IMG/VR virus record: IMGVR_UViG_3300037067_027643
Location: 96,001 to 160,000 of that record
Origin: a virus
Taxonomy: Duplodnaviria; Caudoviricetes
DNA: 64,000 nucleotides
Reading direction: 5' to 3' (one strand)
Part shown: in pieces, positions 3,023-39,638 of the stretch
Layout: each line of letters begins with the position of its first letter
Position numbering within the stretch: position 1 is the first letter of the stretch
Translations under genes and position numbers: made by a program
Notes under the pieces: model-generated
The model's database searches: none
The model's input: the letters and a program-made list of their open reading frames with translations, nothing else
Told to the model about the DNA's origin: nothing

Positions 3023-4117
3023 TTATTTTATTAATTGATAAACTATTTCTTTTAAACTTAAATCCATTTTTGCTTCTTCTTTATTTAATTCTATTATATA
3101 TTTTATTATTTTAAGCATTTCATTATCATTAAACCAATAACTAATTATTACATCATCTATTATATCTTTATCTGGAAATGTTGGTTGAAATATTCGAATA
3201 AATTTTAATATCATATTTACATATTTAAACATTTTTCCTAAATTATGTTTTTGAATATATCTATTAATATATTTCTTATTCATTATAATATCATTATAAT
3301 TTAATATATAATTTGGTATATGTGAATTTTCTTTTAATGTATCTACATTAATAATTTTTGGTAAATTATATAACGATATTTTATATAGTGTATATTGACT
3401 ATTTTTAATTAATTGAAGTTTTGTATAGTCATTTAATAATGAATTTATTTGTGTTAATTTTAAATTTTTAAATTTTAGTGGATGATGAAATTTACCTTCG
3501 ATTTCAAACACGTCATTTCCTATACGTATATCAAAATCTTTATTCTCAAAAATAAAATGATGTTCTCCTCCTATTATATCAAATATTTTATCTTCTGGAA
3601 TAGACCCCTTTCTTTTTTTATGAAATACATATACATTATCAATGTTATATCTATCTTTTATTGTCTGCCTATGTTTTTCGATATTATTATAATTTGGATC
3701 ATTATGATTTTTTTCTTTAGTTACTTTTATTTTATCTACTACTCCTGGTATATACATAGAATTAGTTACTCCATATTCTCTTAACATTGTTTCTACACAA
3801 GTCTTTTTCATTTTTTGTTTAGATTCTTCTGTATGTGGTTTTCTTGGAAAATGATTTTTTGTATAATCCCTAAACCAAATTCCAAACGGACTATCAACAA
3901 ATTTCATTTTTGTATTACATTTACCACATTTACATATCGGATATTCATTATTAAAATAATTTTGCATTATATATTGTTCATATGTTAACCCATGTACTCG
4001 TTTAATATGCCAATTTCTATCGTGCGCATTTTTAAATTTTACTCCATCTAAAATACATAATAATTCATGTTCTTTTGGAACTACATTTGCGTAACTTTTA
4101 TTTTGATTAATATTCAT
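3023..4117 (-). CDS. putative free-standing homing endonuclease (Zn finger + NUMOD3-like + PD-(D/E)xK/Vsr-like domain)
   Basis: CKCGKC, PHTEESKQKMK (NUMOD3-like), YGVTN repeat, DFDIRIGNDVFEIEGKFHH; sits right after the capsid gene terminator. Confidence 0.65.
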   Translation of the reverse strand: MNINQNKSYANVVPKEHELLCILDGVKFKNAHDRNWHIKRVHGLTYEQYIMQNYFNNEYPICKCGKCNTKMKFVDSPFGIWFRDYTKNHFPRKPHTEESKQKMKKTCVETMLREYGVTNSMYIPGVVDKIKVTKEKNHNDPNYNNIEKHRQTIKDRYNIDNVYVFHKKRKGSIPEDKIFDIIGGEHHFIFENKDFDIRIGNDVFEIEGKFHHPLKFKNLKLTQINSLLNDYTKLQLIKNSQYTLYKISLYNLPKIINVDTLKENSHIPNYILNYNDIIMNKKYINRYIQKHNLGKMFKYVNMILKFIRIFQPTFPDKDIIDDVIISYWFNDNEMLKIIKYIIELNKEEAKMDLSLKEIVYQLIK

Positions 4118-4141
4118 AAATTTATTTTATTGATGTAATTA

Positions 4142-4175
4142 TTTTAATATACAAAATTATTTCTAGATAAACAAA
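4142..4175 (-). promoter_or_regulatory. TTTG + AAATAATTTTGTATATTAAAA box (putative promoter/operator, copy 1 of 3)
   Basis: Exact 21-nt copies at 37620 and 40448. Confidence 0.55.
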
Positions 4176-4201
4176 TTATTTTTAAAATGTTTTTAAGTAA
4201 T

Positions 4202-4230
4202 AAAAAACTGGATAATAATATCCAGTTTTT
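4202..4230 (-). terminator. intrinsic terminator after major capsid gene
   Basis: AAAAACTGGATA/TATCCAGTTTTT inverted repeat with T/A tails. Confidence 0.8.
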
Positions 4231-4255
4231 ATTTTTATCGTATAATTTCTATTGT

Positions 4256-5932
4256 TTATACGTAGTTTAAGTGGGTTACCACTAGCTTTCCGAAAAATTC
4301 GGGGCGAACTATTTTTTTTGCATATCTCGTAAGTACACCTTTTCTCGGCGTGAAGTTAGTACTATCATATACTAATGGTGTCATAATCAATGGAACATAA
4401 GGACAAAAAACGGCACCGCACTCTAAGAACTGACTACCTCTAAATCCCATCAATATGATATTTTCTTTCATATAAGGATTTTTGTAAACAGTAAAGCGAT
4501 TATTCAATAAACCTACTTTTTGTACTCCCATTGCAAATTGCATTTGGTTTCCATCAGTATCAGCTGCATAACCAGGAATTGATTCGATTATAGTAGCAAT
4601 ATCAGGAGAGCAAACCATAAAGTTAGCACCACCACGCATTGTTTTTTGGTGAATCTTGTTGCTGATTTTTTGCAATTTAGTACCTAAAGTTTGGAACCAA
4701 GTCTGTTGAGTATATTTAAGAGCGTATCCACTTTGTAAATCTTGACTTGTAAAGTTAGATTCACCATTAGTAGTTTGTCCTGTGTGTACAGTTCCTATTT
4801 TAGCTGACCAATAATCAGTTGTGATAGCGTTAAGAATCAACATATCTAAGATTTCTAAGTCAATTTCCATTGAAATATATTCACTCAACATACTTGTTAA
4901 TTCTGCTTCAGCATCAATTGAATGGTAAGCGTTTAAGTCCTGTGCAAATTCAGGAGTCCATACTGCTTTTAACTTTTTAGTTTTAGCAACAATTGGTTCA
5001 CTTCTCAATGATACGTTTATTTCTGGGATATCTAATGCGTTAGCACCTACTGATGTACCAGGAGCGTATTTATCGGGACCAGTTGTTCCACTTCCCCATG
5101 CAGGATCACCTTGAGCTTGGAAATCACCTCTATCGTAAGCTAATGGAGCTTTGCTATATTTTACCAATACTGTTGAAGCACTACCACTACACATAAAGGT
5201 TACATAACGAGTTGAAGCTGCTCCAGCACTTGTTACAGGCATTGTATTAGCTGGGTAATAAGCTTCGATACCACTACCACTAATATAGAAACTTCTTACA
5301 CCTTCTACATCGTGATTGGTTGTATTCATATCTACAGTTACTCTTTTCATTTCATCTGCTGCTACAGAAGCACTTAATGGAGCTGAATAGTTACAATCTG
5401 CCCAAGAAGCTGAAGTAATAGTTGTTGATAAACTTGCTGTATAGTCGTTAGTACTATATCCAAATCTACCTGCACCATATAAACCTTGTTCTGCATCAAA
5501 TGTTTGGTTAGTAATACCAAATACTGAATTGTTTTGTTCGTAAGTAGTATTAGTAGTATTGAAACCTGGTTGATCAGTTCCATATTTGAAATCTAAGTAG
5601 AATACAAGTCCACTAGGTAAGTTCATTGGTTGTACTGATACGAAGTCTTTAGCTGCTATTTCTGCAAAGATACGTCTTACTAATGGTAAAGCTACTCCTG
5701 ACCATTCTTCTGCACCTGTTGCTGTTCCTGTTTGTGATACTTCACTGATTAACTGTCTTGCTTGGTTTTCTAACAAAATAGCCATTCCATCTCTTTCGTA
5801 ATCACTTTTAAGACCGTCTAACAGTCCTGTTTTTTCCCATTTCTGGTTCAGAGCAATACTATCATTACGCATATTTTTATACGTAGATTTTATTTGTCCC
5901 TCTCCTATCAAATCACTAAATTTTTTATTCAT
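4256..5932 (-). CDS. major capsid protein (T4 gp23-like)
   Basis: LPLVRR, VSVQPMNLPSGLVF, KLKAVWTPEFAQDLNAYHSIDAEAEL, EIDLEIL, PYVPL, TRYA motifs. Confidence 0.95.
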   Translation of the reverse strand: MNKKFSDLIGEGQIKSTYKNMRNDSIALNQKWEKTGLLDGLKSDYERDGMAILLENQARQLISEVSQTGTATGAEEWSGVALPLVRRIFAEIAAKDFVSVQPMNLPSGLVFYLDFKYGTDQPGFNTTNTTYEQNNSVFGITNQTFDAEQGLYGAGRFGYSTNDYTASLSTTITSASWADCNYSAPLSASVAADEMKRVTVDMNTTNHDVEGVRSFYISGSGIEAYYPANTMPVTSAGAASTRYVTFMCSGSASTVLVKYSKAPLAYDRGDFQAQGDPAWGSGTTGPDKYAPGTSVGANALDIPEINVSLRSEPIVAKTKKLKAVWTPEFAQDLNAYHSIDAEAELTSMLSEYISMEIDLEILDMLILNAITTDYWSAKIGTVHTGQTTNGESNFTSQDLQSGYALKYTQQTWFQTLGTKLQKISNKIHQKTMRGGANFMVCSPDIATIIESIPGYAADTDGNQMQFAMGVQKVGLLNNRFTVYKNPYMKENIILMGFRGSQFLECGAVFCPYVPLIMTPLVYDSTNFTPRKGVLTRYAKKIVRPEFFGKLVVTHLNYV

Positions 5933-34610: not shown

Positions 34611-35111
34611 TTAATTTTGATATGGACGTATTTGTTTTAAAACTTCTGTTTCTGGAATAGCAAAATCCCAATGTGAAAAATCTTTATTTTGAATTTCGTA
34701 AGAATGTTTACCATTTTTAAATCCAATATATTTTAATTTAAAAATTCCACCTAAACCACTATCAGTTTTATAATATTTATTTTTTTCAGTTAAATCTTTT
34801 ATTGTATATTGTTCTTCTTTTATAATTTCTCTTACTTTATTTTCTATTAAATTTTCTAATTCTTGTTTTTTCATAACTTCCTTTATTATTTTTTTAACAT
34901 CTATATTTTCATTTATATGATTTAACCTCCATTGATAAAAATAATCTAATGCTTCCAGTTCTCTTTTATCATGAAATCGTTGTTTGGCATCTTGATATAT
35001 TTTTGATAATTTTACTTTATCCCTAATATTACCAAAAAGTTTTTCTAATATACTTCCAGCAAATAAAGCCCAAAAACTTATTTCTTGATGTGTTAATTCG
35101 TTGATATTCAT
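34611..35111 (-). CDS. putative internal head protein (internal leader motif)
   Basis: MKKQELENLIENKVREIIKE internal. Confidence 0.55.
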   Translation of the reverse strand: MNINELTHQEISFWALFAGSILEKLFGNIRDKVKLSKIYQDAKQRFHDKRELEALDYFYQWRLNHINENIDVKKIIKEVMKKQELENLIENKVREIIKEEQYTIKDLTEKNKYYKTDSGLGGIFKLKYIGFKNGKHSYEIQNKDFSHWDFAIPETEVLKQIRPYQN

Positions 35112-35115
35112 AATA

Positions 35116-35388
35116 TTATTTATGTTTATTAATAGATTTTATCTTTTTACGAACTAATTCTTCGACAACTTTTTTAATGTTTTCCTTGGAATTCTTATTT
35201 TCATTTTGTACATTAACATCTGTATTTTCATTCTTTTCATATTTCCAACCATTTTTTAATTCATCAAAAAATTTAAATTTAGCATCATCATCTAAATCAG
35301 CTGGAGTATCTACATTATATGATTGTAATGTATCTAAAAAGAAATTAAAATATTTCTTTTGAGTCTGGGATAAATTTCTTTTTGTCAT
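35116..35388 (-). CDS. hypothetical late protein; its 5' end is duplicated at 37533..37570
   Basis: MTKRNLSQTQKKYFNFF...; late promoter at 35416. Confidence 0.7.
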   Translation of the reverse strand: MTKRNLSQTQKKYFNFFLDTLQSYNVDTPADLDDDAKFKFFDELKNGWKYEKNENTDVNVQNENKNSKENIKKVVEELVRKKIKSINKHK

Positions 35389-35415
35389 AATTACATTAAT
35401 ATTTTTATTACATAA

Positions 35416-35426
35416 TATAAATAGTA
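35416..35426 (-). promoter_or_regulatory. putative late promoter (ACTATTTATA)
   Basis: Recurrent motif. Confidence 0.65.
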
Positions 35427-35543
35427 AAAAAATAAATTAAATAAAATTTTATTTTTAAATATAAATAATTAAAAATATTTTAAAAATTCTATCATTGATT
35501 ATCAGCTACATACAATATTTTTAATAAAAAATTAAACAATTCA

Positions 35544-35577
35544 ACAATTTTTTAATTTATTTTTTACTACTTATATA
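35544..35577 (+). repeat. 34-bp direct repeat (1 mismatch) with 37707..37740, contains late promoter
   Basis: ACAATTTTTTAATTTATTTTTTACTA(C/T)TTATATA. Confidence 0.85.
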
Positions 35578-35620
35578 ATATATTACATTTAATTAAACAT
35601 TAATTAAAATAAAAATAAAG

Positions 35621-35785
35621 ATGAAAACAAGAACAAAGAACGAAAATATATTCAAAGTCAATTTTAATTTTCCAACTGATTTATATGAATATATTAAAGA
35701 ACAATCTAAAATAGAATATATGAGTATGACTCAATATATTGTTGAATTGGTAAAAGAAGATTTAAAGAAGAAAGCTAAGATATAA
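35621..35785 (+). CDS. ribbon-helix-helix (Arc/CopG-like) DNA-binding protein, 54 aa, absent from ORF track
   Basis: MKTRTKNENIFKVNFNFPTDLYEYIKEQSKIEYMSMTQYIVELVKEDL: alternating beta-strand, P, helix, SM..YI helix. Confidence 0.75.
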   Translation: MKTRTKNENIFKVNFNFPTDLYEYIKEQSKIEYMSMTQYIVELVKEDLKKKAKI

Positions 35786-35794
35786 ATAATTTTA

Positions 35795-37492
35795 ATGTTA
35801 CAAGAATCAACATATTCAATGTCTTTTTATTCTACTGCTGATTTAAACAGTATTAAATATCAACATCTGCATGATAAAGCTGTTAAGATTAGAGATTTTA
35901 AGAATGATCTAAGTCAAAGAATATGTCAAAATCCAATGTCAATACAAGATTTAAGTAAGTTTGATTTTTTGAAATTATTTGATATTCAAATAGAGGGATT
36001 AGTTGGAAAGGAAATACAGCCAGCATTAAAAGAAGTCTATACATGTTATCAAAATAAATTTACTCAATTAAATCAAAAAATAAGTTTTAAAATACAAAGT
36101 AAACCACTAAAAATTGAATATTATAAAAAGAATACAAAGAAACACAAAAAAGGAGATATTAAAAATAATTCTATTTCATTAAAATCAACTCCTTTAACCA
36201 AAGTTATTTCTTTTCTTAGTAAATATTACAATGAAACAACTGTTGATTATTTGATTAAAGAAATTGATAATATTAATACAACTAAATCTTTAGAACAAAT
36301 TGAGTTTTACAAATCTATTCTTTATTATCTTAATAAATTTGGAACGAGACTTTTAAAGTTAGCTAACGATAGAAAAACGAGATTAATCAAAGAATTATTT
36401 TCTAAACCAATATTATTTAAAGAATTAACTTATGATGGAATAAATAATTTAGAATATATTGTTTCAAAAAATAAAAATAATCATTCTATAATAGAACATT
36501 TTATTTGTTTAAGTGGTTTTGGGAATTATATAGATGGGAAATATAAAAAAATTACTCGAGATGGTAAATTATATATCCCAATTAAATATAGTAAAAAATA
36601 TCATGGTGAGTTAAATGATTATAATCTAAAATATCAAACATCCTATACTATTCAATTTGTTAAAAATAAAATTAGAATTATACTTACAAAGAAAGGAAAT
36701 AGAGAAACTATTACAGATTGTGATAGTGCAGTTGGAGTAGATACTAACTTAAAACATAATTTATTTTCATTAAGTAACGGTAAGACAATCGACTACAATA
36801 GAGAATTGATTAAAAATTATGTCAAGTTTCAACTTAAAATAGATAAGAAACATGATTTTTTGTATAAATCAAATGATAAAGATTTAACCGAAAAACAGAT
36901 TAAACAAAAATACAATTTAATATCTAGAAAACAAACTTGGAATAGACGATTGATTGCTGAGCAAAATTTAAATGTTAGCGACTTAATCAAAGAGACTAAA
37001 TCGGATAACAAAGATCATATCATTTGTGAAGGACTTCTATTAAAAGATAAAACATGGTGTAGGAGTGAAGAATTCTTTGGAATTAAATACAGTAGATTAG
37101 TAAAGATGTTACATCTTTCCAACGTAAAGAATATTCTTGTTAATCAATGTAGAAATAAAAATATTCAACTTACAATAGTTCCATCTTACTATACTTCACA
37201 ACGTTGTTCTGTTTGTGGTTATGTAGACAGGGATAATAGAAAAACTCAGGAAGATTTTGTTTGTCAAAACTGTGGTCATTCAGAGAATGCCGATCTAAAT
37301 GCTAGCAAAAATATAAAACAATTCAAAGAGATAGATGTTCTGTCTCAGTCATTTTTAAAACTTGATAATAGTACTAGTTGGTTAGTTCCAAAGAAACTTG
37401 GAAAACAAACTATTAAAAAAGTTTTGGATGATTATTTTGAAAATAATAACAAATATAGTAATGATACTGATATTAATTATCAGTTAGAGTAG
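35795..37492 (+). CDS. tnpB: TnpB/Cas12f-like RNA-guided nuclease, RuvC triad intact
   Basis: GVDTNLKH (D), IICEGL (E), YTSQRCSVCG..FVCQNCG zinc ribbon, NADLNASKNI (D); 565 aa. Confidence 0.92.
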   Translation: MLQESTYSMSFYSTADLNSIKYQHLHDKAVKIRDFKNDLSQRICQNPMSIQDLSKFDFLKLFDIQIEGLVGKEIQPALKEVYTCYQNKFTQLNQKISFKIQSKPLKIEYYKKNTKKHKKGDIKNNSISLKSTPLTKVISFLSKYYNETTVDYLIKEIDNINTTKSLEQIEFYKSILYYLNKFGTRLLKLANDRKTRLIKELFSKPILFKELTYDGINNLEYIVSKNKNNHSIIEHFICLSGFGNYIDGKYKKITRDGKLYIPIKYSKKYHGELNDYNLKYQTSYTIQFVKNKIRIILTKKGNRETITDCDSAVGVDTNLKHNLFSLSNGKTIDYNRELIKNYVKFQLKIDKKHDFLYKSNDKDLTEKQIKQKYNLISRKQTWNRRLIAEQNLNVSDLIKETKSDNKDHIICEGLLLKDKTWCRSEEFFGIKYSRLVKMLHLSNVKNILVNQCRNKNIQLTIVPSYYTSQRCSVCGYVDRDNRKTQEDFVCQNCGHSENADLNASKNIKQFKEIDVLSQSFLKLDNSTSWLVPKKLGKQTIKKVLDDYFENNNKYSNDTDINYQLE

Positions 37493-37532
37493 GTAAAAGA
37501 CTGTATTACTGTTTTTTATTGAAAATTATTAC

Positions 37533-37570
37533 TATTTCTTTTGAAGTGGAGAAAGATTTCTTTTAGCCAT
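37533..37570 (-). pseudogene. 12-codon remnant of the 35116..35388 gene start (MAKRNLSPLQKK*)
   Basis: 29/38 nt colinear identity to 35351..35388; retains late promoter at 37599. Confidence 0.75.
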
Positions 37571-37598
37571 AATATTAATCCTTTATTGATTATATTAG

Positions 37599-37608
37599 TA
37601 TAAATAGT
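37599..37608 (-). promoter_or_regulatory. putative late promoter in front of the gene remnant (second copy at 37667..37676)
   Basis: TATAAATAGT on plus strand. Confidence 0.6.
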
Positions 37609-37640
37609 TTGAAATTTCAAAATAATTTTGTATATTAAAA
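37608..37640 (+). promoter_or_regulatory. TTTG + AAATAATTTTGTATATTAAAA box (copy 2 of 3)
   Basis: Exact 21-nt match to 4142(-) and 40448(+). Confidence 0.55.
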
Positions 37641-37706
37641 TAAAATATTATATGTAAATACAAAAATATAAATAGTTTAAAAAATTTTAAAAATATTTTT
37701 CGTTTT

Positions 37707-37740
37707 ACAATTTTTTAATTTATTTTTTACTATTTATATA
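37707..37740 (+). repeat. 34-bp direct repeat copy with late promoter ACTATTTATA
   Basis: Matches 35544..35577. Confidence 0.85.
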
Positions 37741-37765
37741 AAAATAATCGTTACTAAAAAATATA

Positions 37766-37873
37766 AATGAGTGGGAAACTAGATTTTGCAAACCTAGTTA
37801 TTTTAATGTAACCCTTTAAATCCCACTCGTTTTTTAAATAATATAAAGGGTTAAATAAAAAATAAGGGTTACA
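37766..37873 (+). ncRNA. putative structured 5' leader (nested stems plus pseudoknot/alternative pairing)
   Basis: GAGTGGGA/TCCCACTC, AACTAG/CTAGTT, TGTAACCCTT/AAGGGTTACA, TAACCCTTTA/TAAAGGGTTA. Confidence 0.5.
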
Positions 37874-37874
37874 A

Positions 37875-39638
37875 ATGAGTTCCATCCCAAAGTACAAAAT
37901 TTTTACACTCAACAATCTTGTTTTAGAAGATATGATAGGTTATAAACCTAAATATCATGCTTGTTATCAATATATGATACATACTCTAATTCAAAAAAAT
38001 ATTAATTTTAGGAATCAATCTACATTAAACTGGGTTCCTCTTAATATGAAAGTATTAAAATCAATATTTGAAGTTGATAAATCAACAGTAAATAATATAA
38101 TAAAAACTCTTACAAATAATAATATTCTACATAGAGTTGGAACACCTATTCCGGGAGTTCATAGTTATTCTTATGTATTCAACCAAGAACAAAATCACAA
38201 TTACTCTTTTAATGGAAATATAGATAATATTTATTTTATCAAAAGAATAAAACAGTTTGAAAAAACAAGACAAAAACAACGAGTAAAACCAATTAAAAAT
38301 TATAATCAAATATTCAACGCTACAAAAAAAGTTGTATGTGATTTTAAAAAAATGGACACTTTTGTCAACATGATAAGAAATGAAAATGTCAAAGCACAAT
38401 TTCAATACGCAGTTGACAAACTTAAAAAAAGAGATTATTATTTAGTCAAAGATAAAAATGGAAGAATTCATACCAATTTTACAAATTTAAGCAAAGATCT
38501 TCTATATTATACCGACACAGGTTACTTCGATGACTGTGCAAATTCACAACCTCTTTTGCTAAGTCAATTCGTAATATCCTATATTCAAAAGTATGAATCA
38601 ACATCGTCAAATGAAGTAGTCGTCAATGAATCTAATGATACATATATATATAATAGTGATTTTTCCGAAAAAAATGATGAAAATCAAAATCCAGATTTTG
38701 AAAATAATATATATAATAATATAGTATCTTATGGGTTGAATCCTAGTGGTAACTATAAGACTGATAACGGATTACAAATCTGGAATATCACACAGAATTT
38801 ACCACAAGATGTGTTAGATTTTCAAGAAAATTGTAAGACTGGAAAATTTTGGGACGACATTTTATATCATTTTAAAAGTGAAAGTAGAGAAACAGTAAAA
38901 ACAAAAACATTTGCTTCAGTTTTATATGGAGAAGCATATTATGAAAGTAAGTATAAAGACTATTTTAAATTGAAATATCCAAATGTATTAAGAATAGTTG
39001 AAGAAGATAAACAACGAAACGGATATAAGCATATAAGTAATGTTATGCAAAAAATGGAGAGTAAATTGTGGATTGAAACAATTTGTAAAAAATTGCATAA
39101 TAGAGGAATATTTAATTTCTATCCTGTACACGATAGTATTAATTTCTTTGGAGAAATGACAGAAGAAAAAAAACAAATAGCAGAAAAAATAATCAAGATG
39201 AGTTATAAAAAAATGTTTGGAATAGAATGTACACTACATTCAGGAGAATTTAAAAATCATTTAAATTCAGATTATACTTATTCATTTACAAATGCGTTAG
39301 GAATTAATTTTACGTATGAAAAAGATGATGAGTATGTTACTTTAACAGATCAAAATACCGTTACATATCTAACAGGTAGTAAAAAGAAAAAAGAATCTAA
39401 ATTAGATAGGATTCGGGTTAAGAAAACAGTCTTAGGTAGCGTATTAAAAAATTTAGTAGAAAATTGTAATAATGTAAATGCAATAGATGCTATTGGCTAT
39501 CATACATTTGGAGAGCTAATTAACTGTCAAATAAATGATTTTGAAGAAGAATATATGAAATATTTTTGTACTCAGTTACATAATAACGCAATAAATATAA
39601 ATTCAAATTCAAAGAAATTTCAACCTCTCAAAAAATAA
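37875..39638 (+). CDS. superfamily-A polymerase-like protein (TV-Pol/primase-polymerase-like), no exonuclease domain seen
   Basis: GRIHT, motif A DCANSQP, motif B R..VK....VLYG, Q..ES, motif C PVHDSI. Confidence 0.65.
   Translation: MSSIPKYKIFTLNNLVLEDMIGYKPKYHACYQYMIHTLIQKNINFRNQSTLNWVPLNMKVLKSIFEVDKSTVNNIIKTLTNNNILHRVGTPIPGVHSYSYVFNQEQNHNYSFNGNIDNIYFIKRIKQFEKTRQKQRVKPIKNYNQIFNATKKVVCDFKKMDTFVNMIRNENVKAQFQYAVDKLKKRDYYLVKDKNGRIHTNFTNLSKDLLYYTDTGYFDDCANSQPLLLSQFVISYIQKYESTSSNEVVVNESNDTYIYNSDFSEKNDENQNPDFENNIYNNIVSYGLNPSGNYKTDNGLQIWNITQNLPQDVLDFQENCKTGKFWDDILYHFKSESRETVKTKTFASVLYGEAYYESKYKDYFKLKYPNVLRIVEEDKQRNGYKHISNVMQKMESKLWIETICKKLHNRGIFNFYPVHDSINFFGEMTEEKKQIAEKIIKMSYKKMFGIECTLHSGEFKNHLNSDYTYSFTNALGINFTYEKDDEYVTLTDQNTVTYLTGSKKKKESKLDRIRVKKTVLGSVLKNLVENCNNVNAIDAIGYHTFGELINCQINDFEEEYMKYFCTQLHNNAININSNSKKFQPLKK

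Follow-up and report, generated by a model that had tools for sequence, protein, structure and literature searches.

A transposase-less TnpB cassette with a spare gene start in a large tailed phage: a candidate RNA-guided homing element

The DNA considered here, hereafter the window, is a stretch of 64,000 bases (positions 96001-160000) from the 285,744-bp virus record IMGVR_UViG_3300037067_027643, which has a G+C content of ~25%. Since its genes include those for PhoH, a portal and tail fibres as well as a major head protein, the record can be assigned to a large tailed phage. At 35116-37740 of the window lies a cassette with a gene for a TnpB nuclease, preceded by a small gene for a ribbon-helix-helix (RHH) protein, that is lodged near the start of a gene coding for a protein of 90 amino acids (aa), the first codons of which are encountered on both sides of tnpB. 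A preliminary description, made from the letters alone, had proposed that this cassette is an RNA-guided homing element that repairs the gene it interrupts; the RHH and tnpB layout, the intact D/E/D catalytic triad and the second copy of the gene start on which it drew were all borne out by sequence checks. The parts of the locus are the following:

35116..35388, minus strand: intact 90-aa gene (PHROG 28651), an open reading frame (ORF) with 73% aa identity to the protein P0122 of a relative.
35351..35579, no strand assigned: left copy of the duplicated segment, made up of the first 12 codons and the intergenic region, and ending in a 34-nucleotide (nt) box at 35544-35578.
35354..37535, plus strand: segment of 2,182 bp with no counterpart in the empty site, delimited by blastn and three-way alignment against contig L088 of the relative.
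35621..35785, plus strand: 54-aa RHH (Arc/CopG-like) gene, matching the Arc-like repressor PHROG 582 (E 2.7e-5).
35795..37492, plus strand: tnpB, 565 aa, matching PF07282 at 1.2e-16, with RuvC residues D316/E412/D500 and a CxxC..CxxC zinc ribbon.
37532..37570, minus strand: orphaned original start, MAKRNLSPLQKK followed by a stop, with a protein sequence identical to the first 12 residues of the relative.
37571..37741, no strand assigned: right (resident) intergenic copy; the duplicated segment 37533-37741 is 87.5% identical to the relative.
37875..39638, plus strand: 587-aa gene, the right flank of the site in both phages, with 82% aa identity to the relative.

The orphaned start and the intact start at 35351..35388 (MTKRNLSQTQKKY) are identical at 29 of 38 nt, and this match is the coding end of a longer colinear direct repeat, 35342-35578 against 37523-37741, with 68.6% identity over 242 nt (blastn E 1e-11). 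Both copies of the repeat contain the 34-nt box, at 35544 and 37707, with the single mismatch noted before. Within 11 mismatches, no further orphan-like site was found elsewhere in the 285,744-bp genome.

The preliminary description had predicted a cassette-free allele in related phages, and such an allele does exist. A protein search with the 90-aa protein recovered, besides itself, one relative, P0122, a protein of 86 aa that begins MAKRNLSPLQKKY, i.e., the orphan sequence continued by the Tyr that the orphan does not have. The P0122 gene is present on three contigs from three samples (L088, L089 and L090), and on L088 it divergently adjoins a homologue of the 587-aa gene across a 290-bp spacer, with neither an RHH gene nor a tnpB. 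By blastn, the relative aligns to 37533..39566 of the window at 85%, starting exactly at 37533, and to the sequence left of the cassette at 75-83%; in the three-way alignment it runs colinear with the left copy towards the left and with the right copy towards the right. Given this colinearity on both sides, the window has 2,182 extra bases (35354-37535), which contain the replacement start, the intergenic copy, the RHH gene, tnpB and a predicted guide-RNA scaffold. The nuclease gene is present in the window phage and absent at exactly the same site in L088, L089 and L090. Codons 13-90 of the 90-aa gene are colinear with the 86-aa gene, codons 1-12 being the cassette-borne copy, and relative to its counterpart the 90-aa gene has a ratio of nonsynonymous to synonymous divergence (dN/dS) of 0.41.

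Near-identical copies of related elements have flanks that diverge right after ..AACTAT, and a conserved RNA structure closes at the same point. Its parts and the adjacent guide are:

37320..37535, plus strand: candidate omega-RNA scaffold, overlapping the 3′ end of tnpB and a 43-nt tail; its 5′ limit is approximate.
37455..37464, plus strand: 5′ arm of the closing helix, ATAGTAATGA, pairing with 37526-37535.
37526..37535, plus strand: 3′ arm of this helix, TTATTACTAT, which forms the final 10 nt of the element at its right end.
37536..37555, plus strand: predicted guide, TTCTTTTGAAGTGGAGAAAG, antisense to codons 6-12 of the orphaned start.

The last 216 nt of the element have a minimum free energy of -50.6 kcal/mol (z -4.6 versus shuffles), and the tail motif of the scaffold is kept in relatives. 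In an alignment of 17 members, the two arms, which stand ~70 nt apart, are paired in 96.8% of cells, with compensatory changes in 6 of the 10 closing-helix pairs; none of 500 shuffles reaches this value, and slid registers attain at most 58%. The arms were first found by seeking complementarity, which biases the pairing count; this is offset by the placement of the arms in one column block by MAFFT and by the unaided prediction of the same helix by RNAalifold. The scaffold helix also displays a compensatory G-C to A-U change between this tnpB and a second copy in the same genome (see below). The structure is a probable omega-RNA, as judged from these patterns of conservation.

The closing helix and the diverging flanks together place the end of the scaffold at 37535 and the beginning of the guide at 37536, the TAT at 37533-37535 being common to the element end and the target. 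Hence, the orphaned start does sit in the guide position, as had been proposed, albeit with the guide beginning at 37536 and not at 37533. The predicted guide, which begins TTCTTTTGAAGTGGAG, matches the empty allele at positions 1-11 and 13-17 with a mismatch at position 12 (16 of 17), where a full match had been anticipated. Against the cassette-borne start it matches at positions 1-9, followed by four mismatches; thus, the expected departure of the self allele soon after the junction is seen, but over a match of 9 nt and not of 12. No other genomic match to the guide within 3 mismatches lies in a convincing context. The seed of the ISDra2 TnpB spans roughly 12 nt. From these match patterns, the self allele should be safe from cutting, and the known empty allele is plausibly, though not certainly, cleavable.

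The nuclease itself has intact catalytic residues: D316, E412 and D500 do not vary among 27 relatives, and neither do the four cysteines of the zinc finger. Its match to the NF040570 guided_TnpB model (5e-18) is below the curated cut-off of that model, and it scores 25 bits with the NCBIfam IS607_TnpB model versus a cut-off of 350. A profile of the TnpB matches solved Cas12f and TnpB chains, and its AlphaFold model (m23934aef7b17; pLDDT 86) retrieves Cas-lambda, Cas12f, TnpB and Fanzor2 in Foldseek searches, with Cas-lambda (Cas12l) as the best match (E 6e-15, TMq 0.59), ahead of Cas12f and TnpB. The family comprises 234 proteins of similar length, many of them on contigs of 100-670 kb. Its members at 50-55% identity (L005/L006 and L170) display a resolvase-type TnpA directly upstream along with the same tail motif, which identifies the lineage of this tnpB as IS607-like; a PF00239 serine recombinase is found in the relatives L005, L006, L010, L011 and L170. 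The elements of this tnpB clade end in ..CTAT or ..TTAT, and not in GG termini of the IS607 type, whereas ..CGG ends are seen in clades of the protein family that are more distant. The whole 285,744-bp genome of the window phage encodes neither a serine recombinase (PF00239) nor a Y1 transposase (PF01797), and it has no CRISPR-like array or regularly spaced repeats anywhere, so that the absence of TnpA, serine recombinase and CRISPR array first noted near the cassette holds genome-wide. As an aside, the structural matches raise the possibility that Cas-lambda arose from a stock close to this family of long phage TnpBs, in which an IS607-like TnpA accompanies some members.

The genome also codes for a second TnpB:

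G000:C1:31092-32759 (L002 1483-3150), minus strand: intact second tnpB, 555 aa, 75% aa identity to the first.

This copy has its own tail, ..TCATTATTAT, and a different flank, CGGTGCATCAATT.., is unaccompanied by an RHH gene and sits 72 nt upstream of a family-B DNA-polymerase-like ORF with an FFDIEV exonuclease motif. The two copies have in common only the ORF and about 30-43 nt of the tail. They are separated by a dN of 0.19 and a dS of 0.80 (dN/dS 0.23); tnpB is under purifying selection. An empty site for the second copy, sought in IMG/VR via its neighbours (a 97-aa gene and the DNA polymerase), was not found. Directly before the ATG of both copies (window 35781-35797; L002) is ATATAAATAAT, the sole upstream sequence common to them, which represents a TATAAATA box 0-6 nt from the tnpB start codon.

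The layout recurs in the family. We scanned 89 family loci for copies of the flank that follows the tail in the sequence upstream of tnpB, which pointed to two further loci with spare gene ends:

L110:2887-5217, in a phage contig from a freshwater metagenome, with tnpB at 3474..5078.
L110:5092..5217, minus strand: orphan of the N-terminal 38-41 codons after the tail, MELGWKELSLLERVKQRLDKLGYEMHYSKYNHGLSDNN.
L110:2887..3318, minus strand: intact divergent gene upstream, which begins MDIGWKELSLLKRVEERLDKLGYQLFYSKYNNGLEDND.
L030:3114-5760: locus with a spare 3′ end, in which a diverged 26-codon copy closes the 248-aa gene upstream of tnpB.

In L110, the orphan and the intact gene share 71% aa identity (E 2e-17) and 73.6% identity at the DNA level over 110 nt. 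In L030, a member of a GG-ended clade, ..GTTACGG is followed by the orphaned last 26 codons (DVMKEASDTVHRVTLEDSVARVTREK and a stop), which overlap the start of a DNA methylase gene, and the intact upstream gene ends in DVMAKYSDAVYTIELEDSVSRASRVK and a stop. Both TnpBs have intact catalytic residues, and in both loci the intact copy departs from the guide within the first few nt. With these two cases, the spare-end design is not a one-off.

Thus described, the cassette is, as far as sequence can tell, a TnpA-less descendant of a serine-recombinase (IS607-like) TnpB element situated at codon 12/13 of the 90-aa gene. The interpretation that we favour, with a confidence somewhat above even, is RNA-guided, TnpA-independent homing between co-infecting relatives, combined with a cassette-borne rescue of the interrupted gene. 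What the analysis shows of it is the anatomy of the locus and the existence of the empty allele, together with where the scaffold ends, how the guide matches the two alleles and that tnpB is under selection. The guide RNA would come from the displaced original start just past the scaffold, and TnpB loaded with it would cut cassette-free alleles of related phages in a co-infection. The break would then be repaired from the cassette-bearing genome, with the gene body serving as the left arm and the orphan and intergenic region as the right arm, whereby the cassette would be copied into the cut genome. The cassette-borne start would keep the 90-aa gene functional and, because only 9 nt match the guide, would itself escape cutting, the net effect being a natural home-and-rescue drive. 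This chain presupposes RNA production, compatibility of the target-adjacent motif (TAM), cleavage, repair-mediated copying and a need for the 90-aa gene. For the family at large, we give even chances to the broader proposal that the ~550-aa TnpBs of jumbo phages evolved natural home-and-rescue drives, i.e., transposase-less in-gene cassettes in which a recoded spare 5′ or 3′ end restores the gene and immunises the carrier, with the displaced end guiding the invasion of cassette-free relatives.

The three copies of the duplicated segment also speak to the age and origin of the spare start. Over their 199 common columns, 46 sites are unique to the left copy, 16 to the right copy and 5 to the relative. 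The orphan differs from the relative at 4 nt over a span of 38 nt, and all four differences, including a TTA/CTT Leu codon, are synonymous. Such a pattern, which speaks against an in-place origin of the spare start, would fit an orphan that had a coding role until recent times or that every homing event renews, and would not be expected of a fragment as old as the left copy; the picture suggested by these alignments is of an old cassette-borne copy beside a young or refreshed orphan. With regard to the source of the replacement start, which the preliminary description took to have been brought in as a diverged 5′ end, we too favour an import from another phage. The orthologous genes of the two phages have a dS of about 0.2-1.0, and the branch of the left copy measures about 0.28, where neutrality would lead one to expect about 0.22. 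Whether this divergence proves import was considered, and it was rejected as proof, for three sequences without an outgroup are unrootable and neutral drift since the split gives a similar distance. Import is accordingly unproven, as much the same would be seen had the left copy drifted neutrally from about the split onwards.

Several observations weigh against homing with rescue. Position 12, at which the empty allele mismatches the guide, is where the usual TnpB seed has its edge. Three related copies have left flanks that end ..TAT-like and other subgroups yield no motif in common; no consistent TAM emerged from the left ends of related copies and TnpA-bearing relatives; consequently, neither a TAM in the empty allele nor its lack at the right-end junction can be shown. 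The known empty alleles represent a single lineage. The synonymous-change argument spans only 38 nt, and an old in-place duplication with relaxed constraint would account for how far the left copy has diverged roughly as well as import would. Ordinary mosaic recombination is, judging from the gene content, clearly active around the site: in the relative, the 86-aa gene is separated from the next gene by an additional 170-aa gene (opposite window 34611-35122), which is absent from the whole window genome, and the 166-aa protein of the window and a 184-aa protein of the relative have only their first 100 residues in common, with differing C-termini.

It is the last two kinds of evidence, the mosaic differences nearby and a left copy compatible with an old in-place duplicate, that lend some substance to the first alternative, namely that an IS607-type element mobilized by a TnpA from elsewhere hit the 5′ end of the gene, the start of which was restored by partial duplication or by recombination with a related phage, with TnpB and its RNA persisting but not driving any spread between phages. 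Relatives do have a TnpA, and a junction at the right end of the element is what any transposition gives. However, a relic of this kind is difficult to reconcile with two tnpB copies that are under purifying selection with intact active sites in a genome without TnpA, with a scaffold helix that keeps compensatory changes between the two, with an orphan that looks young or constrained and with the same layout in L110 and L030. Hence, we consider it unlikely, if worth serious attention.

The match pattern of the guide admits a further alternative, in which TnpB is a weapon and not a drive: it would cut competing related phages, with the cassette being inherited only vertically and the spare start protecting self. 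The guide matches the allele of the rival and not that of self, both alleles occur in nature, and an intron endonuclease is reported to act in this manner in jumbo phages (Birkholz 2024, as cited in PMC13565253). Nevertheless, the long homology on both sides of the cut would make repair copying hard to avoid, and the placement of the guide at the cassette’s own insertion site would be left unexplained; moreover, a weapon is compatible with homing and not exclusive of it. As a replacement for homing, it appears rather improbable to us.

The two remaining explanations fare worse. By our own reasoning, the order of the parts can formally arise if the promoter region and gene start were duplicated in tandem and a deletion then brought the orphan next to tnpB, with no event specific to the right end and the post-tail sequence being no guide, but this chance architecture would need a breakpoint within 3 nt of the family-wide right end and the same coincidence in two further independent cases, rendering it very improbable. 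Least credible of all is a TldR-like domesticated RNA-guided repressor binding the start of the 90-aa gene, for, notwithstanding a guide antisense to that start and the adjacent RHH regulator, the RuvC triad has stayed intact and conserved, no more than 9 nt of the self allele match the guide and TldRs are nuclease-dead according to PMC10705468; the seed-only self-repression suggested in the preliminary description finds no support.

Some further features of the locus concern its expression. The core of the 34-nt box has 12 genomic copies, 9 of which lie within 75 nt upstream of an ORF; hence it looks like a rightward promoter, and the box of the left copy would be the promoter of the RHH gene and tnpB. 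The TATAAATA-type boxes of the two intergenic copies, which had been taken for late promoters of the 90-aa gene, are on the plus strand and therefore point away from that gene; moreover, TATAAATA occurs 213 times in the genome, against about 220 estimated from base composition, and is thus not in excess. We accordingly rejected that role for them. A scan for sigma-70 promoters returned no enrichment versus shuffles. The leader of the 587-aa gene (window 37767-37835, plus strand) features a nested hairpin, GAGTGGGA...TCCCACTC, followed by a T-run, with compensatory changes in its inner stem relative to the relative (CTAG-type versus TTGAG/CTCAA); a conserved attenuator or other structured leader is the probable identity of this element. 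The sole Rfam match, a sub-threshold miRNA within this leader, was judged spurious.

The RHH protein found only itself among 5.8 billion proteins, and an origin as a remnant of the N-terminus of an IS607 TnpA was rejected as there is no similarity between them; the gene is possibly a regulator of the cassette. In front of the gene for P0007, a TnpB relative at 52% identity, stands a 51-aa gene with a 4-nt overlap into its start, an arrangement that recalls the small RHH gene.

Blastn with 7.5 kb found no match in the GenBank phage collection, single-protein scans of IMG/VR with tnpB and the 587-aa gene returned nothing close, and a degenerate DNA pattern for M[AT]KRNLS..QKKY had zero matches in IMG/VR. 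The filled allele is seen a second time in contig L172 (from a second run, SRR6484325), which is 100% identical across its 1,163 nt (window 35463-36625), and a 2018 landfill metagenome is listed with 94% of the stretch’s sampled words. The sequencing runs listed as holding the stretch include no RNA run. The run behind the empty-allele contig L090 belongs, like that of L172, to the SRR6484 accession series, and this common series hints at a co-occurrence of the filled and empty alleles.

The locus makes TnpB homing in phages testable, as it offers a filled and an empty allele, a readable guide, a self allele that differs from it and two further cases in the family. It opens the questions of whether TnpA-less phage tnpB genes are RNA-guided homing endonucleases, of how a carrier survives a landing within a gene, and of whether the recoded-rescue design existed in nature before gene-drive engineers arrived at it. 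An answer would help explain the commonness of tnpB in large phages and would give a compact nuclease and guide pair with a defined target.

TnpB cuts the vacated site of its own transposon. For the IS200/IS605 TnpBs of ISDra2 and the Geobacillus IS605, this goes by the name of ‘restorative homing’ and is guided by RNA (Karvelis 2021; Meers 2023, as summarised in PMC13565253). Like them, the cassette has a RuvC/zinc-ribbon nuclease, a scaffold over the 3′ end of the ORF and a guide, here predicted, from the DNA just outside the right end, such that the empty site is the target. Unlike them, it resides in a genome without TnpA, its protein exceeds theirs by about 150 aa and has an N-terminal half without a match, its proposed target is the allele of another phage and not the sister chromatid, and it has a spare gene start. 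The IS607 family combines a serine recombinase TnpA with TnpB (CboIStron, PMC10690162). The relatives at 50-55% identity with an upstream resolvase-type TnpA and the GG ends of distant clade members recall this family, but the cassette is without TnpA, ends in ...CTAT/...TTAT and not GG, and falls far short of the IS607_TnpB cut-off.

Closer in spirit is the TnpA-independent spread of IS605 among plasmids, a ‘non-restorative homing’ or gene drive (Mears 2025, as cited in PMC13565253). In both instances, TnpB is proposed to cut the orthologous empty site in another replicon, with repair copying the element; however, the IS605 case has been shown experimentally, for plasmids only, and is without a rescue copy of the target gene. 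The same 2026 review (PMC13565253) presents ‘transposon non-restorative homing’ as a type that is theoretical where the recipients are co-infecting phages or plasmids, with experimental support from plasmids (Mears 2025). In the literature, we did not find a natural phage case of TnpB homing, or of a rescue copy, described.

Among phage elements, the cassette resembles those of SegF, SegB and Mob in that a relative lacks, at the corresponding place, the nuclease gene that lies inside or between conserved phage genes, in that substitutions near the site (here in silico) separate self from non-self and in that co-conversion of the flanks would be expected. These free-standing homing endonucleases of T-even phages carry out intronless homing. 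The cassette differs from them in its predicted recognition by an RNA guide in place of a protein, and in that the target gene is interrupted and rebuilt by a duplicated end. With the Cas-lambda (Cas12l) of huge phages, its best Foldseek match, the TnpB has in common that it is encoded by jumbo phages, but the genome is without a CRISPR array and the guide is set by position at the element end. Finally, the synthetic HomeR and other recoded-rescue CRISPR drives are engineered with Cas9 for insects (PMC7968924). Like HomeR, the cassette is proposed to be a drive within a needed gene, in which a recoded copy of a gene end restores function and is immune to the guide; unlike HomeR, it would be a natural system, built on TnpB and operating in phages, with the 5′ end of the gene and its upstream region as the rescue.

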